The position numbers and the translations under genes are program-made. DNA of 39,914 nt from Chitinispirillaceae bacterium. GTDB lineage: Bacteria; Fibrobacterota; Chitinivibrionia; Chitinivibrionales; Chitinispirillaceae. The DNA is taken from assembly GCA_035382965.1 (NCBI GenBank), contig DAOTAZ010000001.1:1-39914 (forward strand). Reading direction: 5' to 3'. The notes under the pieces are model-generated. The model was not told where the DNA came from and searched no databases. It worked only from the letters and a program-made list of their open reading frames with translations. Numbering within the stretch: position 1 is the first letter of the stretch; each line of letters begins with the position of its first letter. This document shows positions 8,338 to 36,697 of this stretch, piece by piece.

Positions 8338-9474
8338 GTGCGGATTCTCATTTCAATTACAATTCTCCTTCTAAGTACGATTTCTTCACATTCAGAAGAA
8401 AAGCTGATACTTCAGTTTTTTGGCTCAAATACCTGCGGTGAGTGCCTTGAGATCAAAGAAGTGCTCCTTTTTCCTGCTCAAAAGCAGTTCGAAGACAAGC
8501 TTCAAATAAACTTCTACAATACCGATATCGACTCCACCATCAACCAGTTAATCAGGTTAGAAAAAATCTATGGTGTAAAAAACAGTTCAGCCCAGATGCT
8601 TTTCTTTCCTGACACTTTCCTCTCCGGCTCCGATGATATCATGAAGTACGGGCTATCTATGATTAAAAGCAGGATCGAGGAGAACCGAACAGGTACCGGT
8701 CCGTCGATTGAAATGGATGGAGAACCCACAGACGCCCTCAGGAACAAAGTGATGGACTGGGGCTTTTTTATGGGCAGTCTTGTTGCAGGTCTTACCGATG
8801 GAATAAATCCCTGTGCCATTGCAACTATGATATTCCTTATCTCTTTTCTGGCGACTCGCAAAAAGTCCAGACGAGAGGTCCTCATAATCGGCTTGGCATA
8901 CACAGCAACCGTTTTCTTCACTTATCTTGCCATGGGATTGGGCCTGAAAGGAATCCTCGAGCATATCCGCGCCTATCACCAGATATCTATGACAATCCGC
9001 TGGGGAGCATTTGGATTTGCGCTTATTGTCGCAGCACTGAGTTTCAGAGATGCATATGTATACCACAAAACCAGGCGTTCAGAAAAGATAAGTCTTCAGT
9101 TGCCAAAATCGGTAAAACTGCAGATCCATAAGGTTATATCAGGAAGCCTCAGCGGGAAAGGCATTATTATCGGTTCAATTATTGCCGGATTCCTCGTCAC
9201 CCTGCTTGAGGCAATCTGCACAGGGCAAATGTATCTGCCCTACATCGTGGCTATGACACAGAGAGATTCTCTCCGCATTACAGGTTATCTCTATCTGATT
9301 TTTTATAACTTCCTGTTTGTACTACCACTGCTTATTGTAATGGTGCTTGCTTTTTTCGGTCTGAAATGGAACGACCTCGCAAAAAGCACCGGCAAACACA
9401 TGGTAGCACTTAAAGTCACTCTGGGATTGGTGATGGTCGGACTGGCACTGTACCTGGCAAGCGGGATTCTGTAA
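8338..9474 (+). CDS. Thioredoxin-like CxxC domain fused to a DsbD/CcdA-like thiol-disulfide transmembrane domain
   Basis: 378 aa. GTG start behind AAAGG and a signal peptide MRILISITILLLSTISS. A soluble domain carries CGEC, then a polytopic region has Cys in TM helices (GINPCAIATMIFL and LEAICTGQMYLP), as in the DsbD/CcdA electron-transfer core. Confidence 0.5.
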   Translation: MRILISITILLLSTISSHSEEKLILQFFGSNTCGECLEIKEVLLFPAQKQFEDKLQINFYNTDIDSTINQLIRLEKIYGVKNSSAQMLFFPDTFLSGSDDIMKYGLSMIKSRIEENRTGTGPSIEMDGEPTDALRNKVMDWGFFMGSLVAGLTDGINPCAIATMIFLISFLATRKKSRREVLIIGLAYTATVFFTYLAMGLGLKGILEHIRAYHQISMTIRWGAFGFALIVAALSFRDAYVYHKTRRSEKISLQLPKSVKLQIHKVISGSLSGKGIIIGSIIAGFLVTLLEAICTGQMYLPYIVAMTQRDSLRITGYLYLIFYNFLFVLPLLIVMVLAFFGLKWNDLAKSTGKHMVALKVTLGLVMVGLALYLASGIL

Positions 9475-9498
9475 AGCAGTGTAAAGAAAAACACTGCT
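9475..9498. terminator. Hairpin filling the 23-nt gap between convergent genes
   Basis: Perfect 8-bp inverted repeat AGCAGTGT (9475-9482) / ACACTGCT (9491-9498) with an 8-nt loop. It starts right after the TAA at 9472-9474 and touches the opposite TAA (9498-9500). No U-tract. Confidence 0.3.
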
Positions 9499-15296: not shown

Positions 15297-18200
15297 CGAA
15301 AACCCGTCTCGTCTGATCTCGATCCCACTGTGCCTGATGACCGGGATTTGCATTGAGCGTCAATTCCATACCTGAATGAGCCGCCCATCATCTGTGGATA
15401 ACCGTCATCTCTGTCTTCCACCCATTCCCATACATTGCCAATCATGTCATTAATGCCGAATTGATTGCATTGCCTGAAATGCCCTGAGTTCCAGACCCTC
15501 TTGCCTTCTGTGGGGCATTTTCCTGGATCATACACCTGGCCGTAAGGATACATCCGCTCCTGAGCCCCCTGACATGCATCCATCCACTCCCGTGATGTAC
15601 AAAGCCTCTTTCCTGCATCTATACAACTCATCTTTGCTTCGACCCAGGAGACATTGGTCAGAGGCTCTCTTCCCTTTATGTTTGGATATTCATATCTGTC
15701 GATGCAAAAGTTCTTCCCATCGCTTCCTGTTATGGAAACCATATCCTGAGGACACCTCTCACGGATATTGACTGTACGCGAAAAAGATGCAACCCTTTTG
15801 TTTTCATCCATTACTTCCAGAACCACTTTGCGCTTTCCGGGATTTTCACAATTGAAAGCAGTTTTTCTGATCCCGGAGAATTCTGTATCGAATTTCCCAT
15901 CACCGTCAAAATCCCATCTGAAAAGAAGCTTCTCAGGGGGACTCTCTTTGTCTATTGTCAACGATGCGTCAAGATACGCAGTGGTTCCGGTGAAAAGCGT
16001 TTCTGGTTCTAAGGTGAACATAGGTGACGGGGGCAGGTCTATTCTGTAAATGAAAGTGTCCACTTCCCCCTTGAATCCCGAGGCATCGACTACAAACGCC
16101 AGGATAGTGTCAGATTCCATCAGAGTCAATGGTTTCTGGAACACAGGAGACTTGATTGTAGGAGTTTTACCATGGCGCTCGAAATAGATTGTGGACTGAT
16201 CAAATGCATTCAGCGTTACAGACAGTATTCTGTCGTAGAGACGTTCAGGACCTGCCGGAACATTGGGTACAGCCCTGGGACTGAAGATATCCATAATAGA
16301 GACGGCACTCTGGTTTCCGGCAGCATCCTCAGCATAAAAAGCAAATCTCAGGTCATTCCTTCGATGGAATATCAACCTGTCACTTGATTTTAAGAACTTA
16401 TTGCCGGCCGTTCTGGCAGTCTGGCTTGCCATCGGATTCGTCCCATCGACAGTGTAATAAATGGTGGCGTTTTCACTGCACTGGAGAAATACAATTACAG
16501 AATCGTTGAGACCTTTTTTCAGGTTGACATTGACACGCGGAGGAGTCCAGTCCAGCACATACTCATTTCTCTTCACAGGGCTTCTGACCCCCTCCTCCGA
16601 TTCAAGATAGTATTCGAAACTGTGGTGTCCCTCCCTGCTCAGCACAATTTCTTTTCCGGAACTCTTGAAAACCGTATCCGGAAGGATACGCCAGTAAACA
16701 GTGCCGGCAGTATTGGTGGAGAATGTGATCCTCAACTTCTGGTTGTAAACGCCCCCATCCGGAGAAGCAGAAATCATGGGGTTTTTAAGCTCGTTCATGA
16801 TCCCGACAGAACCGGCATTTCCTGCTGAATCAACAGCCAGATATTTAAGTACCTGCCCGCTTGTCATGCTTATCGGTGATGAGTATACAGGAGATGATTT
16901 GGTGGGATCGGCACCGCCGATCTGATAGTAAATGGTTGCGGGTTCGTTTGCAGAAAGACTTACCCTGAATGATCCCTCCTCTATGCTGCCCTCAATCTGG
17001 ATTCTGACAACAGGAGGACGTGTATCGATATAGTAATCGGCAGCAAATTCTTCAGAAACATTCCCTGCCTCATCTATTCCAATGTAGCGCAGAACTGTAT
17101 GCCCCTCTTTTGAGATTACCACTCCATTGCTTGTGTAAAGCATTGAATTCTCAGATACAGGTGTATTGTCGAGAGTATACAGTATCTTTGCTTCTTCATT
17201 GGTGGTGAGATATACGGTCTGTGCACTGTTGAAACGGCCCCCAGGATTGGAAATCTGAATCTTCGGCGCCATCAGATCATAGGTATGGCTCCATTGCGAT
17301 ATTTCCGACACACTCCCCGCTTCGTCCCAGGCACGTGCCCTGATCGTAACTTTTCCCCGGTGCTTAAGAACTATCGGCGAGGAATAAACCTCACTTTTAA
17401 TATCCGGATCACCCCTGTTGCGGGTAAAGCGAATCACCGATTTCTCTCTGGATGTCATGAAAAGCGTATCGGTATTGTGCCCCTGTGCCACTCGAAAGTG
17501 AAGCTTCGGCGGGATAGTATCGATTGCATACTGATTCTGGTAGACAGCAGTCTCGGTTCCAAGAGAACTCTTCCCGTAATACCTTAAAATAGAAAGGCCG
17601 TGGGGCAGAGAAATTGGCTCTTCAAACTTTTTAAACCATTTAGGAGGTGCCAGTGGATCCAAGGTGTAGTACACAGAAGCGCCAGGAGGGAAATCGAAGG
17701 AAACCTCAACAATTCTGTTGTACACACCTCCCCGGGGATTTACCACAATATCAATAGATGATGTGTCGACTGTGTACCTGAGAAATCCAGAAATCGTCCT
17801 GTTTCCCGAACTGTCAACAGCAACCAGATAACCCTCAAAACTGCTTTTCACTGTAAAGGAATCCGGGAAAAGAATTGGTGTACTGTCCTTTTCCGATTTC
17901 TGGTAAAAGAACCTGCACGGCTCGTTACTGCTGATCTTTACTTTAACAGGGCCGGGATAGTTTCCAGGCTGAGGATCAATACTCAGTGATGGTGCCCTGG
18001 AATCAAGGACAAAGATGGCGGAATCAAGCTTTGACCTGTTGCCAAAATCATCTTCACCGTAAAAGTATACACTGTATGTTCCATCTTCCGTTATTGCAAC
18101 AGGCCTCAAATACTGCTTCATTTCATCCGGACCGTTTTGAGAGATCCAAAGTGTGGCGCTCTCATTTGAGGTAAGCGTTATATAGAAGACCGAAGAATGC

Positions 18201-18343
18201 CACTTCTGCTGAGGCTCAATCTTTATCACAGGGGCTATTGTATCAAGCCATAACGGAACAGCATCTTCCTTTGCATACGATGGATGCGGAAGAAGAAACA
18301 GAACGGTTCCTGTGATAAGGGATATAAATTTACTTACGGGCAC
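15284..18343 (-). CDS. Secreted protein with tandem Ig-like (chitobiase C-terminal-like) repeats, a PKD domain and a C-terminal FGE-sulfatase (SUMF1)-like domain
   Basis: 1019 aa with a GTG start and signal peptide MPVSKFISLITGTVLFLLPHPSYA/KE. Repeats of ~80 aa recur with the Y-Y/T-x-D/G...P...S..Y..PI pattern (VYYTLDPLAPP, ILYTLDNTPVS, IYYQIGGADPTKSSPVYSSPISM, IYYTVDGTNPMAS, IYFERHGKTPTIKSPVFQKPLTL). The PKD signature is FRWDFDGDGKFD. The FGE-family signature is IGNVWEWVED...GGSF...ETGFRCCK. Confidence 0.85.
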   Translation of the reverse strand: MPVSKFISLITGTVLFLLPHPSYAKEDAVPLWLDTIAPVIKIEPQQKWHSSVFYITLTSNESATLWISQNGPDEMKQYLRPVAITEDGTYSVYFYGEDDFGNRSKLDSAIFVLDSRAPSLSIDPQPGNYPGPVKVKISSNEPCRFFYQKSEKDSTPILFPDSFTVKSSFEGYLVAVDSSGNRTISGFLRYTVDTSSIDIVVNPRGGVYNRIVEVSFDFPPGASVYYTLDPLAPPKWFKKFEEPISLPHGLSILRYYGKSSLGTETAVYQNQYAIDTIPPKLHFRVAQGHNTDTLFMTSREKSVIRFTRNRGDPDIKSEVYSSPIVLKHRGKVTIRARAWDEAGSVSEISQWSHTYDLMAPKIQISNPGGRFNSAQTVYLTTNEEAKILYTLDNTPVSENSMLYTSNGVVISKEGHTVLRYIGIDEAGNVSEEFAADYYIDTRPPVVRIQIEGSIEEGSFRVSLSANEPATIYYQIGGADPTKSSPVYSSPISMTSGQVLKYLAVDSAGNAGSVGIMNELKNPMISASPDGGVYNQKLRITFSTNTAGTVYWRILPDTVFKSSGKEIVLSREGHHSFEYYLESEEGVRSPVKRNEYVLDWTPPRVNVNLKKGLNDSVIVFLQCSENATIYYTVDGTNPMASQTARTAGNKFLKSSDRLIFHRRNDLRFAFYAEDAAGNQSAVSIMDIFSPRAVPNVPAGPERLYDRILSVTLNAFDQSTIYFERHGKTPTIKSPVFQKPLTLMESDTILAFVVDASGFKGEVDTFIYRIDLPPSPMFTLEPETLFTGTTAYLDASLTIDKESPPEKLLFRWDFDGDGKFDTEFSGIRKTAFNCENPGKRKVVLEVMDENKRVASFSRTVNIRERCPQDMVSITGSDGKNFCIDRYEYPNIKGREPLTNVSWVEAKMSCIDAGKRLCTSREWMDACQGAQERMYPYGQVYDPGKCPTEGKRVWNSGHFRQCNQFGINDMIGNVWEWVEDRDDGYPQMMGGSFRYGIDAQCKSRSSGTVGSRSDETGFRCCK

Positions 18344-20438
18344 TGCTTATCTTTCCCTCTATAGTCTTTCTGAGTTTCTTATCAACTGTTCTGGCCAGCG
18401 CTTTTTCCCAGTGTTCAACAGCGAGATCCTTGAACCCTCTGTACCGCATATAAATATCTCCAATGATATGATCCGGTTCAGGGTTTTCGGGATTTTTCTG
18501 GCTGGCTATTTTCAGTGCATAGATTGCATCTTCGTAGTTTTGTGCTCCCTTATTTACTATAAGATCGTACATGCACATTCCTGTGCCCAGATATCCCTCC
18601 GGGTAATCAGGAAAATCCCTGATAAGGAACTGGTATTTCATTACCGCAACTTCGTACCATCCAAGCTTCCTGTATATCCCGGCAAGTCTGGCAGTCATTT
18701 CTTTGTTGCCGGGCAGATGCTCAAGATATGCTTCCATGTGTCTGGCCGCATCCTGGTATCGGTTCTGCGCAAGGAGAATGCGAACAAGGCCGTTTAAAGC
18801 CTCTTCGTGATATGGCGATAGGTCAAGCACCTTTGTGTAACACTGCTCAGCGTTCTCATACTTTCGAATTTTTTCCGCTATAACAGCCTGCTTCAGGAGA
18901 ATATCTATCCTGCCCGGAGCATATGACAGAAGCTCATCGAAATATTCATAGGCTTTCTTCAAATTGCCTTTTAATAAATACGCACCCGCAAGATTGTAAA
19001 TGACAGAAGTATTCTTTGTTCCGTTTTTATAGGCACGCCTGTAAGCAGCGATTGCTTTCTGTGGATTTTTCTCCAGGTAAAAAACATTTCCCGCATTGTT
19101 AAGAGCTGACTGGCTCAGAGATGAGTTGGAAGATGCTTCCATAAAGAGCTTCCGGGCTTCTTCCTTTTTTCCCAGATGATAATAAACCACTCCCAGATTG
19201 ACAAGAATGTCATTTAGCTTCGGGTTTGCCTCACGGGCTTTCTGCAGCAATTGTGCGGCTCTGTCAAACCAGGTTAACTTGAAGTAGGTATGGGCCAGAT
19301 CAACCATTATGGTGGGGTTTTCAGGATCGATGGAGAGTGCGGACTCCAGCACCATCGATGATTCCATCAGGCGACCACTGTTACGATATGCTGCTCCCAG
19401 AGAGGAATAGTAATGAAGATATTCGGGTCTGACCTTTATCAGCCTGTTAAAAAACTCCACTGCCATGGTATATTCACCTGCGGCAAGATAAGCCCTGCCA
19501 AGAGAGAACTCGACACTAAGATCAGACGGTGCAGATGCAACTGCTTTGGTCAGAGATGCAACTGCTCTCTGGGTTTCACCCTGAGAGAGATAGAAATTTC
19601 CGATTGCTTTGAGACCTGCAGCAGTTTTCTCAAGATTTTTCCGATGCTGGGCAACAAATTGTGAAGCTTCAGGTAACAGATCCGAATCCACAAGCGAATT
19701 TGCCGCATCGGCGATAATAAAGGGATCATGAGGTGAAAATTTCACTGCACGTCGATACCACTCTCTTGCATTTATAAAATCTGCGGTCCTCATGCTCAAC
19801 GATGCCATGCGGCACCATGCAGAACCAAATTCAGGCTCGATCTCTACAGCCCTTGAAAAAGCGCTCATCGCTGCATCAAAGTTCTTTCTCATCTCAAAAC
19901 CATACCCGGCAAGATAGGTCTGAAAGGCGGGTGCAGTGATCTTGTTTCTTGCCAGTACTCTTGAAGAGTCCTCCCCGGAAAGATTGATCTTCAATAGAGA
20001 AGCGCACTTTAAAACCAGATCTGGTATGTAAACATGGAAATCTTTCAGCCCGGCAGAAATTCTGGTATCCATTTTCAGCGGTTCGTCTTTGCCTGTAGCC
20101 CAGATTATCCTGGAGCTGAGGAAAACCGAGTCATCTCTGACGAGATAATTGCCGCCAATAAGCACATCCCAGCCCCACCTGTTCCTGTGCGCAGTAATAA
20201 GACTATCGGAGTCTAGCTCGTATCCTGTTGAATCAACCTGAAAAAGATAGAGCGGATCCCATATCTGCAAACCGCTCTTCTGGCCCATTTTATTGAAGAA
20301 TGCTTCAGGGAAAGCAGATCCTATCCAGTCATAAAGCGGTAAATCTGTTTGATTTTTAAATGGAAATACAGCAATGCTCAATTGTGCAGCAGAGGCAAGT
20401 TGGAGAAAAGATAACAGTAGAAGAGCCGTTCGCTTCAT
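18330..20438 (-). CDS. Secreted TPR-repeat protein with N-terminal TolB-N/LpoB-like domain
   Basis: 702 aa with signal peptide MKRTALLLLSFLQLASA/AQ. The IAVFPFKNQTD motif is typical of the small N-terminal domain often fused to TPR arrays. About 12 canonical TPR units follow (AVEIEPEFGSAWCRMASL, LIKVRPEYLHYYSSLGAAY, ALSIDPENPTIMVDLAHTY, AREANPKLNDILVNLGVVYY, VLDLSPYHEEALNGL). Confidence 0.85.
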   Translation of the reverse strand: MKRTALLLLSFLQLASAAQLSIAVFPFKNQTDLPLYDWIGSAFPEAFFNKMGQKSGLQIWDPLYLFQVDSTGYELDSDSLITAHRNRWGWDVLIGGNYLVRDDSVFLSSRIIWATGKDEPLKMDTRISAGLKDFHVYIPDLVLKCASLLKINLSGEDSSRVLARNKITAPAFQTYLAGYGFEMRKNFDAAMSAFSRAVEIEPEFGSAWCRMASLSMRTADFINAREWYRRAVKFSPHDPFIIADAANSLVDSDLLPEASQFVAQHRKNLEKTAAGLKAIGNFYLSQGETQRAVASLTKAVASAPSDLSVEFSLGRAYLAAGEYTMAVEFFNRLIKVRPEYLHYYSSLGAAYRNSGRLMESSMVLESALSIDPENPTIMVDLAHTYFKLTWFDRAAQLLQKAREANPKLNDILVNLGVVYYHLGKKEEARKLFMEASSNSSLSQSALNNAGNVFYLEKNPQKAIAAYRRAYKNGTKNTSVIYNLAGAYLLKGNLKKAYEYFDELLSYAPGRIDILLKQAVIAEKIRKYENAEQCYTKVLDLSPYHEEALNGLVRILLAQNRYQDAARHMEAYLEHLPGNKEMTARLAGIYRKLGWYEVAVMKYQFLIRDFPDYPEGYLGTGMCMYDLIVNKGAQNYEDAIYALKIASQKNPENPEPDHIIGDIYMRYRGFKDLAVEHWEKALARTVDKKLRKTIEGKISSARK

Positions 20439-21112: not shown

Positions 21113-23230
21113 GTGCGCCTTTCTGGTCTAAAATTTCTCTTTTTTTTCTCTTTCATTACAGCAGCAACCGCTTCTCCTCTGAATCTATTCTGGACTGACC
21201 AGATCAATTCAGCTATACAGGAGAGAGATTCATATTTCTCGGCAATGGGGGTCATTTCAGAGAACAGCCGCAGAAGTATCGATGATGAGCAGAGTAAAAT
21301 CAGACTATCCGGCCTTCTGGACTCCTCACCCGCATATAACAATCCCTGGTTCAATCTGTTAAAAGGCATTTCAACTCTTGATACAGTCGGCGGAGTGAAA
21401 GAATACTCTTTTAATCGTGCTCTGTCTCTTGCACAAAAGGACCCCGGAACAACCTGGGTACTTTTTGTGGAGTTTACCAGATATAAGCAGGATGTGTGGG
21501 CAGAAAAAAGTATCATACAGCTTGAGAGGCAACTGTTTGAATCCGGCGCACGCTCCTCACGGATAATCTCCAGCCTGTTGCTCAATTACGGGATTCTTGC
21601 GGAAAAGGAAAAAAACACCGTTAAAGCTCTGAAATATTATGAATGGGCAAAACGGTTTGATCCTCTGGACGGAGCTCCGTATCTTCGCAGTATCCTCCTT
21701 TATTTCCCTTTTTCCTTAAATGGTCTAAAGGAGGAACTCGGTGGTTTTCTCTACACACTCAGGAATTCATGGACTGAGCAAATTGAGTTTTTCAGCACTG
21801 GTTATAACTGGTTCAGATGCGTAATTCTGTTTTTTATACTTTCAGTTTTTATAACACTGATTATAAAGTACTTTCCTTTCTCGCTCCATAATATCGCTGA
21901 TCTCTTCCCTACCAGCGTATCACTAACTCTAAGGACAATCCTTGCTTCTGCATGTGTCATCTCGCTCTCCTCCTTTGGAATCCTGCCTTTCCTGTGGGTA
22001 TCGGCATACCTTATGTGGCACTTTCTTAACATTAAGGAAAGAGTTCTGCTGGCTGTAGCACTCATTTTTCTGATTCTTGCTCCTTTGGATACTTATCTTC
22101 AAAGTATGTTCAGCGAGGCATTGAACCCGGAAAGCAGTGTACAGATGCTCTCGAAAGCGGTAAATGAAGGGTATTCCGATGCACTTTATAAAGAGGTAAT
22201 CCGCAGAAGCAGTGAAAATCCAACAGACTTTCTTTCTCCCCTGAGTGCAGCTATCTATGAAATAAAGAGAAATGATTACTCTTCAGCCAGGCAGAATATT
22301 CAGAATAGTACTGCTTTACGTCAGGACGATCCGGTTGTTCTGATATCTGCCGGAAATCTCTCCTACCTTGAGGGAGACCTGGATAAGGCAAAGACATACT
22401 TTAAAAGGGCTCTCGAGCATGACAAGGGATTTGTGAGTGCCAGATTCAATCTGGCCCAGTGCTATCTTAGAAAAATGGAAACCATCACCGGTACGGAAAT
22501 GCTCAATGACGCCGCAGAGAGAGATCCGACGCGGGTCAATTCTTTTGTCCACAAAAATGACACTTATTTTTCTACAAACTGGCCTGCTTTGCGTCAGGTT
22601 ATGTTCTCAGATTACTCTCCCATTTATTTCTGGACCAGCATTTTCCCCTTCTATACCGGTAGCTGGAGTGATGCAGGGAGTCTCTGGGGAACAAAGTTTC
22701 TCGGATTATCTCCTCTGGTTTCAATCATTGTTTCCGTAATTTTGTTTATTTTCCTTTTCATAATCCACAGCAGAGAAACAAGCCACAGTAAAGTGAGGAG
22801 ATTTTTCGAGTGTAAGTATTGCGGCAGAATAATCTGCCGCAAATGCAAATCGGGCCTGCTATGCAACTCCTGCTTTGAGAAAACCAGGTTTATCAGAAAT
22901 GAGAATAAACTGATAAAAAAGCAGCATACCATCTCCAACAGATTCCGCCTTGCGGCAATGATTAAGAAAGAGATTCTGGAGATTATATTCCCGGGTGCAG
23001 GGAGCATGCTTGATGGGCAGAAGCCTTTCTTTCTTGTCATTATCTTTTTGCTGGTAACAAGTTTTGTGTATGCGTCCTATGCAGCTCTTTTATTCAACAA
23101 TCAGGTTTCATCGGCAATAGTATTCCTGTTGGTCATTCTTTTTGCATATAACTTTTTATTTCTCTACAGTGGGAGTGTGAAAATTGTACGGTTTTTCCGA
23201 GAGTATTTTAAGATGCAAAAATCTGCATAA
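21113..23230 (+). CDS. Polytopic membrane protein with TPR repeats and an embedded Cys-rich zinc-ribbon
   Basis: 705 aa with a GTG start and signal-like N-terminus MRLSGLKFLFFFSFITAATA/SP. TPR-like units are KALKYYEWAKRFDP and GDLDKAKTYFKRALEHDKGFVSARFNLAQCY. Several long hydrophobic segments are present. The Cys cluster is CKYCGRIICRKCKSGLLCNSC. Confidence 0.75.
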   Translation: MRLSGLKFLFFFSFITAATASPLNLFWTDQINSAIQERDSYFSAMGVISENSRRSIDDEQSKIRLSGLLDSSPAYNNPWFNLLKGISTLDTVGGVKEYSFNRALSLAQKDPGTTWVLFVEFTRYKQDVWAEKSIIQLERQLFESGARSSRIISSLLLNYGILAEKEKNTVKALKYYEWAKRFDPLDGAPYLRSILLYFPFSLNGLKEELGGFLYTLRNSWTEQIEFFSTGYNWFRCVILFFILSVFITLIIKYFPFSLHNIADLFPTSVSLTLRTILASACVISLSSFGILPFLWVSAYLMWHFLNIKERVLLAVALIFLILAPLDTYLQSMFSEALNPESSVQMLSKAVNEGYSDALYKEVIRRSSENPTDFLSPLSAAIYEIKRNDYSSARQNIQNSTALRQDDPVVLISAGNLSYLEGDLDKAKTYFKRALEHDKGFVSARFNLAQCYLRKMETITGTEMLNDAAERDPTRVNSFVHKNDTYFSTNWPALRQVMFSDYSPIYFWTSIFPFYTGSWSDAGSLWGTKFLGLSPLVSIIVSVILFIFLFIIHSRETSHSKVRRFFECKYCGRIICRKCKSGLLCNSCFEKTRFIRNENKLIKKQHTISNRFRLAAMIKKEILEIIFPGAGSMLDGQKPFFLVIIFLLVTSFVYASYAALLFNNQVSSAIVFLLVILFAYNFLFLYSGSVKIVRFFREYFKMQKSA

Positions 23231-23242
23231 AAGGAGGAACTG

Positions 23243-24322
23243 TTGGTATTAAGCGGCACCCTGCGGGAGTTTATTCTTGCTGATGTGTTCCAGTTACTCA
23301 CTCAGCAGAAAATCACAGGAAAGCTGATTTTGAATAATGGACGAAGCGAAGGCTTTGTCATTTTTCAAAACGGACTGGTAGTTGCTGCCCAAAAAGATGA
23401 CGAAAAATTTCTCTCTAAACTCTACAATTACCTCATCAGTGTAAAAAAACTCAGTTCTTCAAAAATACGGGCACTTTTTGCAGCATTTGAAGGTGACATC
23501 AGCGGATTAACAAATGAGGTTGCTGCCATGGGCCTCATTCCCAAACATGACCTGAACATGTTTGCAGAATCCACCACGATGGATATCGCCTGCAGCCTTT
23601 TTCTATGGAAAACTGGAACCTACCGTTTTAATTCCATTACCAATGTAGACTCTCTGGTTCCCGCAGAAATCTCCATTCCGGTAGAGAATATAGTAATGGA
23701 AGCGATGAGAAGAGTGGATGAATGGAACAGGATGCTTCAATGCATCTCTGAGCAGTCAATATTTGTCCGGAGCCAGAAGAGTGCAAATGATCTGATGCAG
23801 GAAATCGACCCTCTCTCCGACCCGGACAATTACATTTTGATGCGAATTGACGGTACATCACCTGTCAAGGATCTCTTAAGCAGCCTCTGCCTCAGCGAAT
23901 ACAAAATCTACGAATCATTGTACAATCTCTTACAAAACAAGAGAATTACGGTTCTTTCCGACCGTATTTCCCAATCCGTACAGGCAGCTCTTCACAAGAA
24001 AGAGCGCGAACATTCCACTTCACGATTCTACACACTTTTTTCAATTCTGACAGCTCTGGGAATCATCTTGCTTATACTCTTTATGGCCCTTGTGGTCTTT
24101 AAAAAAGTAATAGTCCCGGATACGGCCACCGATGCCCATCAAAGCAGAATCGAGTTACCCTCTGCATTGGCAAAAGAAAAGGTTTCCATTGCAAAAATCT
24201 ACTACAGAGCCAAATACAGCACGGAACCACAGAGTTCGGAAGAACTGAAGGAATTCAGATTATTATCAGACAGGGATTTATCCCATTATCTGATCAATTC
24301 AGATTCTGAACAGAAAAAGTGA
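23243..24322 (+). CDS. DUF4388 (PATAN-like) domain protein with C-terminal transmembrane anchor
   Basis: 359 aa. TTG start 5 nt after a perfect AAGGAGG and 12 nt after the upstream stop. The N-terminus LSGTLREFILADVFQLLTQQKITGKLILNNGRSEGFVIFQNGLVVAAQ fits the DUF4388 consensus as I recall it. The TM helix is FYTLFSILTALGIILLILFMALVVF. Confidence 0.8.
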   Translation: MVLSGTLREFILADVFQLLTQQKITGKLILNNGRSEGFVIFQNGLVVAAQKDDEKFLSKLYNYLISVKKLSSSKIRALFAAFEGDISGLTNEVAAMGLIPKHDLNMFAESTTMDIACSLFLWKTGTYRFNSITNVDSLVPAEISIPVENIVMEAMRRVDEWNRMLQCISEQSIFVRSQKSANDLMQEIDPLSDPDNYILMRIDGTSPVKDLLSSLCLSEYKIYESLYNLLQNKRITVLSDRISQSVQAALHKKEREHSTSRFYTLFSILTALGIILLILFMALVVFKKVIVPDTATDAHQSRIELPSALAKEKVSIAKIYYRAKYSTEPQSSEELKEFRLLSDRDLSHYLINSDSEQKK

Positions 24323-24475: not shown

Positions 24476-26194
24476 ATGGCATCAATTAATTATGCGGCTA
24501 GGGAAATCAGTGTAAAAGTCGTGTATTATGGCCCTGGTTTGAGTGGTAAAACTACCAATCTACAAGTCATACACAAAAAAGTCCCCCCTGAGTTCAAGAG
24601 CGACATGGTCTCTCTGGCTACGGAAACAGATCGTACCCTGTTTTTTGATTTCCTGCCTCTGGACCTTGGGAAAATCAAAGGCTTTGCCACAAAATTCCAG
24701 CTCTATACCGTACCAGGGCAGGTTTACTACAATGCTACCCGTAAACTGGTTCTCCGCGGTGTTGACGGAGTAGTGTTTGTGGCTGATTCATCTCCGGATA
24801 AGATTCAGGAAAACCTGGAGAGCTTTCAGAACCTCGAAGACAACCTGGCAGAATACGGATATAAGCGTGAGAACATTCCAATACTCATCCAGTATAATAA
24901 AAGGGATCTCCCGAATGCTCTTCCTGTTGAAGAACTGCAGAAGCTCATAAATAAATACAACCTTCCATGGAATGAGGCTGTAGCCAACAAGGGAATAGGT
25001 GTTTTCGACTCCCTTAAGTTAATCGGAAAAATCGTTATAGACTATCTCAATAAAAAGTACTCTCGTCAGTCACCCCGTTCTGCAGCGCCTCAGGCCCCAT
25101 CGCCTCAACAGGCAAATCCCGGCCCTGCGCCAAGGCAATTTGCTCAGTCGCAGCAGTTCGGACAAGTCAATGCAGGGTTCAGCCAGCCGCAGATGCCCAG
25201 ACCTGCGCAGCCAAGAGCACCACAGCAGGCACCAAGGCAATACCCCGGTGTTTCACAGCAAATGCCACCAAAGCAGACACCACAATTTCCGCGGATGCCG
25301 CAGCAACCCAATATGCAGAATCCATCTCAGAGTCGGCAGCAGATGATCAATCGTCCTTTTACTCCTCCGGTTACAAATACACCGCCGAAGAGTTCTGCCG
25401 CCGACGATCACTATATTGACACTTTTGAACCAGCACCTCAGAATAATCCCGTCCCGCCTCAGGCCAGTGCCGATTCCGGTTATTACAACTATGGCAACAT
25501 CCAGTTGCAGGAAATGGACGAACCACAATTTGAGGCTCAGAATCTTAAAGATCAAAATCAGGATCCCTCATTTTATTCTCAGAATCAACAGGCGGGTTTT
25601 TCCGGAGCGGAGCCTGCTCAGGGACAATTTGAAGTCAGTGACAAAACCGATCTGGATCTGGAAATAGAAAAGTACCAGCGTGAGATAGAGGAAAAACAGC
25701 GCCGTATGCGCCAGTCAAAGCAATCTCCGCAGAATCATCAGTACCAGGCACCACAGCAGCAGTATCAGCAGCCTGCTCAGTACCAGCAGTTCCAGCAACC
25801 CGGGCAACAATTTCAGCAGAGACAGCAGTTTCAGCCGCCTCAGCAACAGTACAATCAGCAGGCACAGCAGTTTCAGCAGCCTTCTGCCCCCAGGCAGAAC
25901 ATGCAAAATCCAGCTTTCGGTGGAACACAGCAGCAACAGCCTTTTGCTCCATCTCAGAGTGCTGATGAAAACGATTACGATGTTTACAATCTGGAAGTTT
26001 CATCATATCCTGAGCAGAACCAGACACCTGCAAGGCAGGCCCCGGTACAATCTGATGATGGGGATGAGGATATGTTTTTTACATCGGTAGATACTGATCG
26101 TCAGAAAAAACCGATGAGGAAACCAATCAATCCCCGCACAAAGCAGCAGAAGGGTTTCCTTTCAAAATTCTTTAATAACAGGGATACTCTCTGA
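24476..26194 (+). CDS. mglA: MglA-family Ras-like small GTPase fused to a long Gln/Pro-rich C-terminal extension
   Basis: Residues 1-195 are nearly collinear with M. xanthus MglA as I recall it: INYAAREISVKVVYYGPGLSGKTTNL, TETDRTLFFDFLP (Arg at position 53 by direct count), LYTVPGQVYY (Gln at 82), GVDGVVFVADS, QYNKRDLPNA. Residues ~197-572 are low-complexity Q/P-rich and in the same frame with no stop. Confidence 0.9.
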   Translation: MASINYAAREISVKVVYYGPGLSGKTTNLQVIHKKVPPEFKSDMVSLATETDRTLFFDFLPLDLGKIKGFATKFQLYTVPGQVYYNATRKLVLRGVDGVVFVADSSPDKIQENLESFQNLEDNLAEYGYKRENIPILIQYNKRDLPNALPVEELQKLINKYNLPWNEAVANKGIGVFDSLKLIGKIVIDYLNKKYSRQSPRSAAPQAPSPQQANPGPAPRQFAQSQQFGQVNAGFSQPQMPRPAQPRAPQQAPRQYPGVSQQMPPKQTPQFPRMPQQPNMQNPSQSRQQMINRPFTPPVTNTPPKSSAADDHYIDTFEPAPQNNPVPPQASADSGYYNYGNIQLQEMDEPQFEAQNLKDQNQDPSFYSQNQQAGFSGAEPAQGQFEVSDKTDLDLEIEKYQREIEEKQRRMRQSKQSPQNHQYQAPQQQYQQPAQYQQFQQPGQQFQQRQQFQPPQQQYNQQAQQFQQPSAPRQNMQNPAFGGTQQQQPFAPSQSADENDYDVYNLEVSSYPEQNQTPARQAPVQSDDGDEDMFFTSVDTDRQKKPMRKPINPRTKQQKGFLSKFFNNRDTL

Positions 26195-26928
26195 TGAAGG
26201 ATATGATTCTTTTCCCTGAGGATATTGACCAGTTAAATGCAGTGTTATCGCAACTGGTCCTCAAGGCCAACCTTTTACTCGCTGTTCTGATCAACAAAGA
26301 CGGACGGTTACTCACAAGTCAGGGAAGCCTTGAAATCGTAGACACGGTCTCCATGGCAGCACTGGTGGCAGGAAACTCTGCTTCTACTCTGGCAATCGCC
26401 AATCTCATGGGAGAGACCGAGTTTTCAACAATGTATCATCAGGGAAAAGAGAAGCACATCTATATCGCTGTCGTTGACGAAAATACTTTTCTTGCTCTGG
26501 TATTTGATGATCGTACCAATATTGACAGAGTTAAAGTGTTCGCGCGGCAGTTCGACAGACAACTTAAACAATCTCTTGAGCAAGTCTACAACAAAACAGA
26601 AGATCAGATCGATCTTGATCTGGGTATGGGTTATGATCCGATGTCGCAGCAGCAATCCTACCCGGAGACTTTTATGAGTGATCAGGCGTTTTCTGAGCCT
26701 CAGCAAAACCCGATTGCTTTTCCGGAAAGCAGCCCCCCGGTTCAAAACTTCGTTCCTCCTGAACAAATGGCTCCCATGCCCCAGCCATCAGAATATAAAC
26801 AAGCTTCTGATGAAGAGGTTTTTTATATTGAATCGATGCAGAAGAAAAAGATGGCTGAGTCTAACGATACCAACCGTCTGTATCTGAAGAATAAAATCAG
26901 AGAGACAAAAATTAAAAAAGATAAATAA
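26194..26928 (+). CDS. mglB: MglB-like Roadblock/LC7 domain protein (predicted MglA GAP) with P/Q-rich C-terminal extension
   Basis: 244 aa. The ATG overlaps the mglA TGA by 1 nt (TGATG). Residues ~10-135 (LNAVLSQLVLKANLLLAVLINKDGRLLTSQG...ALVAGNSASTLAIANLMGETEF...IYIAVVDENTFLALVFDDRTN) align with M. xanthus MglB from memory. Confidence 0.85.
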   Translation: MKDMILFPEDIDQLNAVLSQLVLKANLLLAVLINKDGRLLTSQGSLEIVDTVSMAALVAGNSASTLAIANLMGETEFSTMYHQGKEKHIYIAVVDENTFLALVFDDRTNIDRVKVFARQFDRQLKQSLEQVYNKTEDQIDLDLGMGYDPMSQQQSYPETFMSDQAFSEPQQNPIAFPESSPPVQNFVPPEQMAPMPQPSEYKQASDEEVFYIESMQKKKMAESNDTNRLYLKNKIRETKIKKDK

Positions 26929-26929
26929 C

Positions 26930-27202
26930 TTACCAACCTGCCACTGTCTTTACAACTAGCATCAAAATCAGGATAAGAAGCACAAAGCCGGTTATTGTTT
27001 GCCAGGAAAGGACTGTTTTCCCGGATCCAAATTCTCTTTCTTTAATCTCCTGATATGTGTCATCCTCATCAGGCAGATCGATTCCATCTAAATACCTTTC
27101 CGGTGACCATCCGGTATTTTCATCAGAACCGCAATGGGGACATGCTTTGGCTTTAAGAGAAATTTCACCACCACAATATGGACAATTTACACTTTGATTC
27201 AT
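26930..27202 (-). CDS. Small zinc-ribbon protein with C-terminal TM helix
   Basis: 90 aa. CPYCGG...CPHCG is a four-Cys zinc ribbon. An acidic linker follows, then the TM helix ITGFVLLILILMLVV. Confidence 0.6.
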   Translation of the reverse strand: MNQSVNCPYCGGEISLKAKACPHCGSDENTGWSPERYLDGIDLPDEDDTYQEIKEREFGSGKTVLSWQTITGFVLLILILMLVVKTVAGW

Positions 27203-28239: not shown

Positions 28240-29307
28240 ATGGGAAACAGATTTTTTACAATACAACAGATACTGGATGAGACGGATGGCAGAGCCGGAA
28301 TGACGGTCAGGTATACCGGAACTGGTGCCATGCTGTTCTCCGAATTCGGAGCGCGGCTTCTGGGGCTTTTTCCAGACAAATCCGGTCTCAACCTGCTCTG
28401 GCTTGCACACGACCTGAGAGAAAAAATCGACAACCGCAGTTGGCTTACCGGTGGGGAAAGATTGTGGATCGCTCCTCAAAGAGATTATTTCTTTGAAAAC
28501 CCCCGTGATTTCGAGGGTTTCAGAGTCTCGCCGGAAATAGATCCCGGAGTATATAAACAAAACGGGGATCTTCATTATGAAAACATCTTCTCTCTGCTTG
28601 ATTACATGAGAAACCGGATATACGCGGAAAGCCTGGCAAGCAGGCGTTTTCAGCCAATCGATGACCCGTATTGCAGCGGTCTGCCATATGCTGGTGTAAA
28701 GATTACCGATCACCTGTCGATCTCAAGCCCGGGCCTCGACCTCTGTCCCTGGTCAGTATCGATGGTCAATTCTTGCGGCCCGGGAAACCCTGGTACTGCA
28801 CTTTTTCCGGTCAGAAACAACCCCTCACTTCTCAGCTACTTTGATCCCGTTCCACCGGACAGAGTATCACTGGGAAACGGCTACGCCCGCTTCCTTCTTG
28901 ATTCCAGAATGCATCTGAAACTGGCAATAAATCCGGAAAACATTGTCTGGGAGAACCCTGCCAAGATCCTCTATGTTTCTCCTTTCCCGGACCGTCCCGA
29001 ATGGTTCTGCGTTATCAAGAGAAGCGATGATCTCCCCAGAAATCAGGATGAGTGTGTCGATATATCCATGAGCAATCCCACAGGACCCAAGGGAGCAATC
29101 CAGGTATACAACAATCTTTCCGAAGATCACGAGAGACTCTGCTACGGGGAGATTGAACTGCAGTTAACAAAAGGCAGATCAGTTGACGGGAGGACCATCA
29201 GCACTGCTACTCATGAACTGCTCGGTTACAGCGGAACCAGAGATGAAATACTGGATCTGGCCGGCAAGGTGTTAGGTATCGACTGCAAACCCGAAATTTA
29301 CTGCTGA
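28240..29307 (+). CDS. Hypothetical protein (possibly beta-sandwich, mutarotase-like)
   Basis: 355-aa ORF with protein-like composition. The motif WLTGGERLWIAPQ vaguely recalls mutarotase-like DUF families, unverified. No clear SD; internal Met at codons 21 and 31 are alternative starts. Confidence 0.55.
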   Translation: MGNRFFTIQQILDETDGRAGMTVRYTGTGAMLFSEFGARLLGLFPDKSGLNLLWLAHDLREKIDNRSWLTGGERLWIAPQRDYFFENPRDFEGFRVSPEIDPGVYKQNGDLHYENIFSLLDYMRNRIYAESLASRRFQPIDDPYCSGLPYAGVKITDHLSISSPGLDLCPWSVSMVNSCGPGNPGTALFPVRNNPSLLSYFDPVPPDRVSLGNGYARFLLDSRMHLKLAINPENIVWENPAKILYVSPFPDRPEWFCVIKRSDDLPRNQDECVDISMSNPTGPKGAIQVYNNLSEDHERLCYGEIELQLTKGRSVDGRTISTATHELLGYSGTRDEILDLAGKVLGIDCKPEIYC

Positions 29308-33296: not shown

Positions 33297-35009
33297 TTAC
33301 TTCCCCTCCCGCTTCATGATTTTTGCCCACTCATCCTTAAGAGTGACGGTGCGGTTAAAAACCGGTGAGCCTGGCCTGGAATCCGGGTCAACACAGAAAT
33401 ATCCGACACGCTCAAACTGAAAGCGTTCTCCGGGCTTTGCCTCTGAGAGTGATTGCTCCACCTTGCAGGAATTCAGAATTTTCAGGGAATCGGGATTGAG
33501 ATTGAGCATGAAATTACCCTCAGGCGCATCATCAGGGTCCTCTTTGCTGAACAGTTTTTCATAAAGCCTAATCTCTGCATCAACAGCATGTGCCTCTGAG
33601 ACCCAGTGAAGAGTAGCCTTCGGAGAACGTCCGTCAGGTGCAGCCCCTCCGCGTGTAGCAGGATCGTAGGTACAACGAAGTTCTACAATCTCCCCTGTGG
33701 CAGGATCTTTCACCACTTCCTTACAAGTGATAAAGTAGGCATACCTCAGTCTGACCTCACGGCCCGGAGCAAGCCTGAAGAATTTTTTCGGCGGTTCCTC
33801 CATAAAATCACCACGCTCAATATAAAGAATCTTTGAGAATGGAACTTTCCTTGTTCCCATCGATGGATCTTCAGGGTTGTTTACAGCATCGAGGAATTCC
33901 ACCTGTCCTTCGGGGTAATTCTCAATCACTACCTTCAGCGGTTCAAGGACCGCCATGACCCTGAGTGCTCTTTTATTTAGATCCTCTCTCAGGCAGTGTT
34001 CAAGAAGAGCATAATCGACAATACTGTCACGCTTAGCGACTCCGATACGCTCACAGAAGTTTCTTATCGACTCCGGAGTAAACCCTCTTCTGCGTAAACC
34101 CGAGAGTGTTGGCATCCTGGGATCATCCCAGCCGCTCACCACTTCATCCTTTACTAACTGCAGAAGCTTCCGTTTGCTCATTACAGTGTATGTAAGGTTG
34201 AGTCTGGCGAATTCGATCTGCCTGGGGTGATGAATCTTGAGCTGATCGAGAAACCAGTCGTAAAGCGGACGATGGCCTTCGTATTCAAGAGAACAGAGTG
34301 AGTGAGTGACTTTTTCTATTGAGTCCTCGAGGCCGTGAGCCCAGTCGTACATGGGATAGATAACCCATTTTGTCCCTGTACGGGGATGCGGAGCTTTCTT
34401 AATGCGATACATTACCGGATCGCGCATGTTGATATTGGGATGAGCCATATCGATTTTAGCCCTCAATACCTTCTCCCCCTCATCAAACTCCCCTCTGGCC
34501 ATGCGCTCGAAAAGATCGAGGTTTTCCTCAACAGTCCTGTTTCGATATGGGCTCTCTTTTCCCGGTTCTGTCAGGGTACCTCTGTACTGACGAATCTCCT
34601 CTGCGTTGAGATCATCTACATAGGCCTTTCCATCCTTTATCAACTGTATAGCCCAGTTGTACATCTGTTCGAAATATTCAGAGGCAAAATAGATTCTCTC
34701 TCCCCAGTCAAAGCCAAGCCAGCGCACATCATTTTCTATGGCATCGATATACTCCTGCTCCTCTTTTGCAGGATTAGTGTCGTCGAATCTGAGATGGCAC
34801 TCGCCATTGAACTCCTCAGCCATTCCGAAATCGATGCAGATTGCCTTTGCATGCCCGATGTGTAAATACCCGTTTGGCTCAGGAGGAAAGCGGGTCACTA
34901 CTCTCTCCCACTTGCCTGCACTCAGTTCCTCTTTAATAATTTCCCTGATAAAATTAGCCGTCTGTGCAGGAGGCTGTACATTTGATCCATTGCTTATAGA
35001 ATTATCCAT
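33297..35009 (-). CDS. glnS: Glutaminyl-tRNA synthetase
   Basis: I prefer the ATG at 35009 (MDNSISNG...; 570 aa), which overlaps the gltX stop by 8 nt. [17 protein letters not shown] (HIGH) and TVMSKRKL (KMSKS) motifs are present, and the GlnRS-type C-terminal anticodon-binding region has typical length. Confidence 0.92.
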
Positions 35010-36492
35010 TTTCCTTTTCCACCTGTGCTGTTGTTTTGCTGATAAATTCGATTGCACGTTCTATTCTTCGTAAAACAGTTTCCTTGCCAAGTGTCTGCAT
35101 CAGTTCAAACAGACCGGGGCCGAAGCTGACTCCGCTGACCGCAAGCCGTGTGGGATGAATCAGTTTTCCGGAAGAGATACCCGATTTTTCGGCAAGGTCT
35201 CTGTAGAGAGTCTCGAGTTTCTCATGTGAAAAGTTATCCTGAACCGAAAGAGCAGATTTGATCTGAATTAAGTTTTGCAAAGAATCCGGAGTAAAGGTCT
35301 TTCTGGCCGCTTTTTCCTCATAGGATTCCGGGTCTTTGAAGAAATAGGATGAATTATCAATGAGTTCTGTAATGCGTTTTGATCTTCCCTTGAGCAGATC
35401 AATTATTTGAAGCAGCCATGGATCATCGGAGGTCTTTTCTGATGATAGATACCCCCTCTCTTTCCATACAGGGAGTACTTCTTCTGCAAGAGAACGTGAA
35501 TCTCTCTCGGCCATGTAAAGCCCGTTCATCCATTCCAGCTTTTTCTCATCCAGTACCGAGGCTTTCGGCGAAACCTGTTCAAGGGAGAAGGCCTTGATAA
35601 GTTCCTCCCGGCTCATTTTTTCCCGATCATCACCCGGGGCCCATCCAAGGAATGCCAGGAAATTAAACAAAGCCTCAGGAAGGTACCCGGCGTTTTTATA
35701 ATCCATAACAGAGGCAGCACCTTTTCTCTTGGAGAGCTTGCCACCATCGGGGGAAAGGATAACCGGAAGATGGGCAAAAACAGGCGCTTCCCACCCGAAG
35801 GCTTCATAGAGCAGGACATGGCGGGGTGTTGATGCAATCCACTCATCACCGCGAAGTACATGTGAGATCGCCATGAGGTGATCATCAACCACATTTGCCA
35901 TGTGATAGGTAGGATAACCATCGGATTTTATCAGTACCAGATCGTCAAGGACATCACTGCTGTACTCGATTTTACCTCTGATACCATCTTCGAAAGCGAC
36001 TGTTCTTCCGGAGGGGATTTTAAAACGGATCACATACGGTGTACCGGCATCGAGGAGTTTCTTCTCCTCTTCCGGAGAAAGATTACGGCATTTACGGTCA
36101 TAGCCGGCGTTCTGCTTTGTCTTCTCCTGCTCGGCTCTCAACTGCGAGAGTCTCTCAGGAGTACAGAAACAGCGGTAAGCGTGTCCGCTGTCCAGAAGTA
36201 TCTGAGCATGTTTTCTGTAGATATCAAGTCTCTGAGATTGAATATAAGGGCCGTATTCTCCCGGAGCCTCAGGTCCCTCATCCCACTGAAGTCCCAGCCA
36301 TCTGAGACTCTCATATATCTCCTTGAGGGCATCTGCCACAAAACGACTTCTATCGGTGTCTTCGATTCTCAGGATGAAAGTACCACCATGATGACGGGCA
36401 AAAAGGTAGTTAAACAGGGCACTTCTGGCTCCACCTACATGGAGGTAGCCAGTGGGTGAAGGAGCAAAACGGACTCGTACCGGTTTATTCAT
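35002..36492 (-). CDS. gltX: Glutamyl-tRNA synthetase
   Basis: [25 protein letters not shown] (HIGH-type) and GGKLSKRKG (KMSKS) motifs. The track start at 36498 is a TTG; the ATG at 36492 (MNKPVRVRF) is 10 nt after AAGGA. Either is possible. Confidence 0.92.
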
Positions 36493-36697
36493 TTTCAAAT
36501 GTTCCTTTCAGGTTCAGGAGTCTAAAAATACGTTTTTATTTGTTATTTCGGGACTTTTTTATGAAATGTGTGTTTAAGTGATGCAGGACCCGTCTGTACA
36601 TTTCCAGATGGAACGGATTTTGAAGCAATGTTAAACAGAGCAAGGAGCCCGCGTTAAGGAAAGAGAGTTTCGGCATGTAAAGGTGTGCGGAGGCAAT

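Follow-up and report, generated by a model that had tools for sequence, protein, structure and literature searches.

The mglA locus and the G domain

The window analysed here is a stretch of 39,914 nt from a Chitinispirillaceae bacterium of the phylum Fibrobacterota (GenBank assembly GCA_035382965.1, contig DAOTAZ010000001.1), and it encodes an MglA with a long C-terminal extension. Among bacteria, MglA is the model for Ras-like switches of polarity. Its gene in the window is one unbroken open reading frame (ORF) on the forward strand (24476..26194, 572 aa) with a Shine-Dalgarno-like GAAGGA upstream of the ATG, and comprises a G domain (aa 1–196, 24476..25063) followed in the same frame by an extension of 376 aa (aa 197–572, nt 25064–26191). 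The gene lies in an order conserved across both classes of the phylum, namely rpsT, a TPR protein gene, a PATAN protein gene, mglA, mglB, often a gene for a zinc-ribbon protein with a transmembrane (TM) helix, and then a polysaccharide deacetylase gene.

Residues 1–193 were found to match MglA from Myxococcus xanthus end to end (PDB 6h17, 5ymx and 6hjh; E ~2e-76), MglA from Thermus thermophilus (PDB 3t12) aligned over the same residues, and a Pfam scan gave an Arf/Ras match in this region. The P-loop GPGLSGKT, the intrinsic Arg finger R53, T78, the catalytic Q82 and the NKRD motif (141–144) are all present, and the protein carries the sequence hallmarks of the MglA family (group 1), i.e. a GxxxxGK[ST] P-loop, NKxD, R53/Q82/T78 and an adjoining mglB. 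The defining features of this family (Arg finger, Gln, and a Thr replacing Asp in G3) have been described previously (PMC3000849, PMC4316618). The G domain was ~90% identical among 106 full-length homologues, with GPGLSGKT, T51-D-R53-T, Y77-T78-V-P-G-Q82 and NKRD invariant, in agreement with a preliminary description of this DNA, made without database searches, that had reported R53, Q82 and NKRD to be intact. The domain has the sequence of a canonical Ras-like switch, and MglB-stimulated GTP cycling would follow from homology.

In the full-length AlphaFold2 (AF2) model the predicted local distance difference test (pLDDT) score was below 50 for aa 1–94 of the G domain (nt 24476–24757) despite the close solved homologues, probably because the alignment is nearly invariant and shallow, and the model was set aside for the G domain and for the docking of extension islands onto it. 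Many database labels for these proteins are wrong ("signal recognition particle receptor subunit beta" at JGI; "hypothetical protein" or "ADP-ribosylation factor-like protein" at NCBI), as the G domain is clearly that of MglA.

The extension is genuine and found throughout the phylum

The preliminary description had placed an in-frame Gln/Pro-rich extension of ~376 aa at 25064–26191, and these coordinates proved exact (Q 22.6%, P 13.6%). The identical protein is encoded by 18 contigs, drawn from samples at JGI, ENA, Logan and NCBI, and the DNA of eight copies from independent samples was 100% identical over all 1719 nt, which excludes a stop or frameshift near position 25060 as far as independent assemblies can. 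The chance of 376 consecutive open codons is ~1.5e-8. Tandem Repeats Finder (TRF) detected nothing beyond 2.2 copies of a 9-mer, and a DNA slippage array was rejected on this basis. Variants within the 90% identity cluster had three substitutions in the G domain, ~22 substitutions and one in-frame 4-aa indel (at 440–443) in the linkers of the extension, and no difference in the charged helix (389–414) or the C-terminal tail (533–572); the within-species substitutions cluster in the first linker. The tail was encoded in frame behind differing linkers in 186 of 200 long homologues, which argues against a fusion of mglA with a separate ORF. The remaining 14 homologues, which lack the terminal pattern described below, are visibly truncated or frameshifted. 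Some homologues are split or garbled, namely P0076 (551 aa) with the fragment P0121 on the same contig, and also P0047, P0117 and P0118.

More than 110 proteins of 440–670 aa with the same layout were recovered by homology search, the named ones originating from Fibrobacter sp. and from metagenome-assembled genomes of Chitinispirillaceae and Chitinivibrionales, and the architecture was found in ~200 Fibrobacterota MglA homologues of 292–754 aa in total. When MglA lengths were surveyed as the preliminary description had proposed, all nine Fibrobacterota loci (one genome per species) encoded an MglA of 292–719 aa, compared to 191–211 aa and no tail for ~65 MglA from Myxococcota, Acidobacteriota, Gemmatimonadota and others. 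The long extension is a phylum-wide trait of Fibrobacterota MglA. A few MglA-like paralogs from outside the phylum are also long (L049, 364 aa; L060, >464 aa; L074, 403 aa), and long tails on MglA-family GTPases are thus not exclusive to Fibrobacterota. These paralogs start with MALFNY, MVFFNY and MVLFNY, respectively, and have acidic or P/A-rich extensions with different, beta-strand-like C-termini, e.g. ...VTVRIKITIEKG and ...RVRLNLRLVLNLKRD.

Longer MglA homologues ("group 2") were recorded in 2010 by Fremgen et al., including a 313-aa MglA from Fibrobacter succinogenes, with the extension named only as a "C-terminal domain" and not analyzed (PMC3000849). A 2014 survey of prokaryotic small GTPases placed Fibrobacteres in MglA group 1 and gave no function for the extension (PMC4316618). 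No account of a membrane anchor or a disordered tail on MglA was found in the literature searched. The Fibrobacterota protein thus belongs to a known GTPase family as a real and reproducible variant that spans the phylum, and earlier work had recorded its extension only as uncharacterized. The phylum-wide occurrence, the further conserved short motifs and the extended MglB encoded next door had all escaped the preliminary description.

Conserved islands within a predicted disordered extension

Aligning the 106 full-length homologues revealed a pattern of gap-rich, low-complexity stretches with 5–30% identity, alternating with four conserved islands. All elements are given here with their forward-strand positions. 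Linker 1 (aa 197–388, 25064..25639) is P/Q-rich, variable and predicted to be disordered (column identity 5–30%, AF2 pLDDT <50), and contains the first island (aa 334–348, 25475..25519), an alignment block with the pattern [DE][YF][YF][DN]YG[SN][IV]NLEP[MI] in which Y339 is at least 90% conserved. It is followed by a charged amphipathic helix (aa 389–414, KTDLDLEIEKYQREIEEKQRRMRQSK, 25640..25717), defined by the alignment and by AF2. Linker 2 (aa 415–532, 25718..26071) was delimited by gap fractions and alignment blocks, and includes a Q-rich expansion (~aa 419–490, 25730–25945; gap fraction 0.5–0.98 over aa 421–490) as well as a third island, YDVY (aa 501–504, 25976–25987). The fourth island is the C-terminal tail.

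The core of the helix, KTDLDLEIEKYQREIEEKQRR (aa 389–411), is 91% identical across homologues, with nine invariant residues (L393, D394, E396, I397, E398, Y400, E403, I404 and Q408). AF2 predicted a helix at 392–414 with pLDDT 91–94, the sole confident element of the extension. A charged helix at about 25649–25720 had been noted in the preliminary description, and its sequence DLDLEIEKYQREIEEKQRRMRQSK corresponds to residues 392–415, with pLDDT above 90 at 392–414. The helix is missing from the proteins of the Fibrobacteria class and from L003-type proteins. Searching the PDB with its sequence gave nothing significant; the best match was a weak similarity of KTDLDLEIEKYQREIEEKQRR to the conserved terminus of coil 2B in intermediate filaments (lamin A, E 0.49), which is only a hint of a possible coiled-coil or dimerization role for helix 389–414.

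Most of the extension outside the helix had pLDDT <50, and the tail ~56–60. The linkers also show the sequence behavior of intrinsically disordered regions, being of low complexity and of variable length (83–510 aa), with conserved flanking elements and an unconserved sequence in between. The extension is thus predicted to be disordered apart from one helix.

A basic, MinD-like pattern at the extreme C-terminus

The last 40 residues have the consensus [ML][YF]FTSV[DN]..DRQKKPxKRPVNP....QKGFLSKFFNKDxP. The tail alignment divides them into motif a (aa 533–540, MFFTSVDT, consensus [ML][YF]FTSV[DN]; 26072..26095), a polybasic motif b (aa 541–558, DRQKKPMRKPINPRTKQQ; 26096..26149) and motif c (aa 559–572, 26150..26191). 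The latter consists of the last 14 residues, KGFLSKFFNNRDTL, and was assigned by motif count as MinD-like amphipathic, with a Phi-Phi-x-x-Phi-Phi pattern of hydrophobic residues after K/R; the KGFLSKFF end noted in the preliminary description is thus correctly placed, and stops six residues before the C-terminal end. F535, S537, P550-x-N552-P553 and F561 are invariant in the 106 homologues. The last 33 residues include 10 K/R and 2 D/E, giving a net charge of ~+8. No TM segment was predicted in MglA by a TM scan.

A basic stretch with a Phi-Phi-x-x-Phi-Phi end was found in the last 22 residues of 186 of the 200 long MglA homologues, with on average 3.2 K/R in the 12 preceding residues. The terminal pattern occurred in only 4.0% of 818 unrelated ORFs of the same loci, and in 1.5% when upstream basic residues were required. 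This basic and hydrophobic C-terminal pattern is the only feature of the extension retained phylum-wide: in several sublineages (P0188–P0230, L005–L009) YFTS and PxNP have been lost or replaced and the basic Phi-Phi-x-x-Phi-Phi end persists. Its variants (KGFLSKFF, KRKGFFAWLFGKR, KKKGFFDGLFKKEK, KKKGFFGRLFGRG, KKPGLFGRMFGKS and SFFARLLAWLLKWFK) keep the hydrophobic periodicity and the charge but not the identity of the residues, which is as predicted for a lipid-binding helix. One sublineage of long MglA (L121, L134) has an acidic-then-amphipathic end, ...AIFEFEEELFASLKGKK(P), instead of the KGFLSKFF type.

When a profile of the tail was run exhaustively against 1.84 billion representative proteins, 56 matches emerged, always at the extreme C-terminus. 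All matches with a canonical MglA N-terminus have the MglA G domain, and the others are shorter sequences without a recognizable N-terminal domain, so that no second domain context was found; one match (P0175) is a weak false positive. A word-indexed search with the same profile returned short fragments only, and a PDB search gave nothing significant (chemokine noise).

The membrane-targeting sequence (MTS) of Escherichia coli MinD is KGFLKRLFGG (PMC5471200, PMC3189734), and KGFLSKFF shares with it the pattern K-G-Phi-Phi-x-(K/R)-Phi-F. The MglA terminal pattern also resembles the lipid-binding helices of FtsY listed in PMC3189734. The hydrophobic moment of the MglA tail is 0.48, compared to 0.41–0.55 for the MinD MTS, with mean hydrophobicity and interfacial energy equal to or more favorable than those of the MTS, and GFLSKFFN is the most interface-favorable 8-mer of the extension (Wimley-White scale).

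Neighboring genes and an extended MglB

The conserved first gene of the module (21113..23230, forward strand) encodes a TPR protein of ~700 aa, for which about six membrane segments are predicted and which also has a Cys-rich stretch resembling a zinc ribbon (Pfam TPR, TM scan, synteny). It is followed by a gene on the same strand (23243..24322) for a PATAN/DUF4388 protein (PF14332, E 6e-22; synteny) with one predicted TM helix (aa 268–286, TM scan). The linkage of PATAN to MglA/MglB is known from genome context (PMC4316618), and TPR and PATAN proteins are among the MglA-linked candidates in M. xanthus (PMC11580455). Downstream, the reverse strand (26930..27202) encodes a small protein that combines a zinc ribbon with a TM helix at its C-terminus (Pfam, TM scan); the corresponding gene was frequent at this position (L001, L089 and the P0197 contig).

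The mglB gene was found directly downstream of mglA in all loci examined. In the window it lies on the forward strand (26194..26928), its start codon sharing 1 nt with the stop codon of mglA (TGATG), and encodes 244 aa with a Roadblock/LC7 domain and a Q/P-rich extension (Pfam Robl_LC7, NCBIfam MglB). A paired survey of MglA and MglB in 80 metagenome loci showed that MglB length differs between lineages. Fibrobacteria MglB are 161–163 aa and without a tail. In the clade of the window MglB is 196–272 aa long and carries a Q/P-rich extension that ends in DTNYLYLKNKIRETVKRKKEE, with a basic end YLKNKIRETKIKKDK; the protein of the window itself ends in basic ...RLYLKNKIRETKIKKDK. Chitinivibrionales MglB are 288–320 aa and end in EYLYFTSMNYLKNKAKEG..KGLFSRFFNRSK, or in TFLKKIFRSSKKKK or AFFKKFFKTSSKKK, combining a YLYFTS motif with a generic basic amphipathic end of the same kind as the MglA tail. 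Examples of extended MglB are found at 26194–26928 in the window, at 8386–9261 in L090, in L004 and in L147–L169.

Three large reverse-strand genes are arranged head to tail with overlapping ends further upstream in the window, encoding a 1951-aa TPR protein with YbgF/BamD-like repeats (9498–15353), a 1019-aa protein with five CHB_HEX_C/Fn3_assoc repeats and an FGE-sulfatase-like domain (15284–18343), and a 702-aa TPR protein (18330–20438). A link to the Glt/Agl gliding machinery via the large TPR proteins was considered and rejected, as only generic TPR matches were obtained (GltE 57 bits, cut-off 225) and the trio at 9498–20438 gave only generic model matches that do not place it in Glt. Downstream, a 355-aa ORF on the forward strand (28240–29307) matched nothing in Pfam or NCBIfam; its position is taken in L089 by a 351-aa gene that likewise has no Pfam match, and the ORF appears to be a conserved unknown gene beside the polysaccharide deacetylase. 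The window also encodes two tandem class-I tRNA synthetases of the Glu/Gln type on the reverse strand (33297–35057 and 35002–36498, the listed ORFs overlapping by 56 nt), followed on the opposite strand by a Ser/Thr protein kinase gene (36683–38473).

Comparison with known systems

The Fibrobacterota protein shares with MglA from M. xanthus and T. thermophilus the G domain over 193 residues, the P-loop, R53, T78, Q82, NKRD and an adjoining MglB Roadblock gene, but adds 376 disordered residues and an anchor-like peptide. Myxococcus MglA is soluble and depends for its recruitment on receptors at the pole, among them RomR/RomX. The M. xanthus and T. thermophilus proteins consist of a single G domain of 195–197 aa (PMC4316618), and the M. 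xanthus operon has the order mglBA (PMC3000849), in contrast to the order mglA-mglB with a 1-nt overlap in the window. Compared to the "group 2" MglA of Fremgen et al. (PMC3000849), where the F. succinogenes entry likewise comes from Fibrobacterota, the extension described here is predicted to be disordered rather than a folded domain, gives proteins of more than 700 aa, occurs phylum-wide and has a MinD-like end.

The terminal peptide and the MinD MTS both stand behind basic residues at the extreme C-terminus, share the K-G-Phi-Phi-x-(K/R)-Phi-F pattern, and are similar in moment and interfacial energy. The MglA peptide differs in being carried by a Ras-like GTPase and not a ParA/MinD ATPase, and in lying hundreds of disordered residues from the folded domain behind an extra polybasic PxNP stretch. 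FtsZ, in turn, has a GTPase core, a disordered C-terminal linker and a conserved C-terminal peptide that binds FtsA or ZipA and not lipid. The layout of MglA is alike, with a globular GTPase, a linker variable in length and sequence and a short conserved terminal attachment peptide, but the fold is Ras-like rather than tubulin-like.

In eukaryotes, Ras and Rho have a hypervariable region with a polybasic stretch and a lipid anchor, and Arf/Sar1 an N-terminal amphipathic helix coupled to GTP. For MglA we likewise propose a small GTPase whose flexible C-terminal region, with its basic cluster and hydrophobic element, keeps it at the membrane, although MglA has no CAAX box or lipidation signal, its hydrophobic element would be a peptide helix, and its linker is 10–50 times longer. 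The ARF1 helix is listed in PMC3189734.

Proposed mechanism and alternative explanations

We propose, with a probability of roughly 60%, that Fibrobacterota MglA is a membrane-tethered switch, consisting of a G domain, a disordered leash and a polybasic, MinD-like C-terminal anchor. What was observed directly behind this proposal is the architecture with its pattern of conservation, the synteny and the equivalence of the motifs. In such a switch the G domain would, as judged from its homology, cycle between GTP and GDP under the control of MglB. The last ~10 residues (KGFLSKFF) together with the polybasic stretch may fold as a short amphipathic helix that lies against the cytoplasmic membrane on its anionic inner side, and the motif equivalence and the conservation pattern suggest that the helix would form at the membrane as in the MinD MTS. 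The linker (83–510 aa, ~335 aa in the window) would act as a flexible leash in which length and disorder outweigh sequence, and the short motifs (DYYxYG-INLEP, helix 389–414, YDVY, YFTSV and PxNP) probably dock partners or dimerize MglA. Likely partners are the upstream multi-pass TPR and single-pass PATAN proteins; their synteny is plain and their interaction with MglA putative. That both conserved upstream neighbors are predicted membrane proteins was counted in favor of the anchor, as was the generic basic amphipathic end that MglB has independently in Chitinivibrionales. As a switch, MglA would overall be restricted to the surface of the membrane, similar to Ras/Rho with a hypervariable region and a polybasic anchor.

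Several observations weigh against this proposal. The amphipathic segment covers only about two helical turns, and AF2 gave it a helix of three residues at pLDDT ~56–60. The peptide is very short, and shuffling its last 17 residues reproduced the observed hydrophobic moment in 28% of cases; as the moment is not significant against shuffles, the case for an anchor rests on conservation and on the tolerated substitutions. The preliminary description had likened the tail to a membrane-targeting helix, and comparison speaks well for that suggestion, through the conservation in 186 of 200 homologues and the MinD MTS pattern, and not through the moment alone. The MinD MTS is, moreover, effective at the membrane only as a dimer. 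Window-clade MglB has a basic end without a clear hydrophobic face, so co-tethering of MglB, the GTPase-activating protein (GAP), is not general. Finally, the invariant F535, S537 and P550-x-N552-P553 and the near-invariant G-F are unexplained by lipids and point to a protein partner.

The last point leads to the main rival explanation, in which the C-terminal peptide mainly docks onto a protein, like the C-terminal peptide of FtsZ, the extension serves as a hub of short linear motifs, and lipid binding is minor or absent; the receptor could be e.g. the upstream TPR or PATAN membrane protein. In its favor, F535, S537, P550, N552, P553 and F561 are invariant and other islands are conserved, the 40-aa tail in its exact form is restricted to MglA across the 1.84 billion representatives scanned, YFTS is common to the MglA and MglB tails in Chitinivibrionales, and the TPR and PATAN genes are in conserved synteny and have MglA-linked counterparts in M. 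xanthus (PMC11580455). However, YFTS and PxNP have been dropped in several sublineages while the basic Phi-Phi-x-x-Phi-Phi end stays, and quite different amphipathic sequences can stand in for the whole terminal end, which is uncommon among peptides that dock specifically. We regard docking as the principal function of the tail as unlikely, though it deserves serious consideration; it is compatible with a membrane anchor and is probably the role of the YFTS/PxNP part.

A further explanation takes the low-complexity region as a prion-like or phase-separating domain whose main function is to gather MglA into a condensate, e.g. a hub at the pole or at the membrane. Here the composition of the linkers is informative. 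The best 80-aa window of the MglA studied (aa 416–495) contains 41 Q/N, above the classical criterion for Q/N-rich regions of at least 30 Q/N per 80 residues, but the best windows in 13 other homologues contain 13–34, mostly below 30, so that Q/N content is unconserved (13–41 per 80). Richness in Q is peculiar to the lineage of the window protein, the Q-rich core (~419–490) being a lineage-specific insertion, gapped in 50–98% of homologues, and proline makes up 13–26% of all linkers, which counts against amyloid. The suggestion in the preliminary description that this region is prion-like and self-associating consequently finds little in its favor.

The aromatic residues were also counted in favor of the condensate explanation. 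The long linkers contain 6–9% aromatics, with 8.8% in the MglA of the window, where the spacing is more even than in 96.5% of shuffles (p ~0.03). Even spacing was also found in four of five Fibrobacteria-class proteins (p 0.000–0.04), whose linkers (345–510 aa, L005–L009) are rich in G/P/F with GGFGSxPQQ and PFG/SPFG repeats resembling FG repeats; the aromatics may mediate a sticker-and-spacer type of self-association. Even spacing was, however, missing in about half of the homologues tested and not found in most proteins outside the Fibrobacteria class, and the L003 clade keeps the anchor with an 83-aa P/A/S linker of 1% aromatic residues. Condensate formation as the main function is thus considered improbable. 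The Fibrobacteria-class linkers also bear a mid-linker motif of their own, IPV[AS]PF[VL]E[GT]F, and their MglA ORFs begin at positions 6001, 6001, 6001, 1334 and 1865 of L005–L009, respectively.

In every lineage the extension exceeds the G domain by 7–17 points of GC content. Whether GC bias by itself accounts for the composition of the linkers was examined, and it proved a partial explanation only, as G/P-rich linkers also occur at 49% GC. Since composition, length and sequence of the linkers are all unconserved, they fit a flexible tether with a drifting sequence. A bolder, combined scenario, in which Fibrobacterota independently evolved the Ras/Rho design (in Chitinivibrionales for the GAP as well) and the linker with its evenly spaced aromatics, Q/P/F/Y-rich in the window protein and built of GGFG/PFG repeats in Fibrobacteria, forms a membrane condensate with the TPR and PATAN proteins that marks a site of polarity or envelope machinery, is doubtful.

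The least tenable explanation, that the extension is a frameshift or misassembly fusing mglA to a downstream ORF, or untranslated low-complexity DNA, might draw on the few split or garbled homologues but is effectively refuted, with negligible probability, by the same DNA in eight independent samples, the protein on 18 contigs, the tail in frame after linkers of widely varying length in 186 of 200 homologues, the in-frame indels within the cluster and the improbability of a chance open frame (p ~1e-8).

Implications

The conserved TPR and PATAN membrane proteins are candidate partners of the Fibrobacterota GTPase module, and the natural series of linkers (83–510 aa, Q/P-rich to G/P/F-rich) could be used to separate the effects of tether length, composition and embedded motifs. 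If the linkers do drive condensates, this would mean a receptor-independent, condensate-based localization of a bacterial polarity switch. If MglA is a membrane-tethered switch, as we propose, an entire phylum would have a self-leashed, anchored MglA, representing a second route to localize a bacterial small GTPase and a convergence with the membrane attachment of Ras, Rho and Arf in eukaryotes, joined in one clade by a GAP with a similar anchor.

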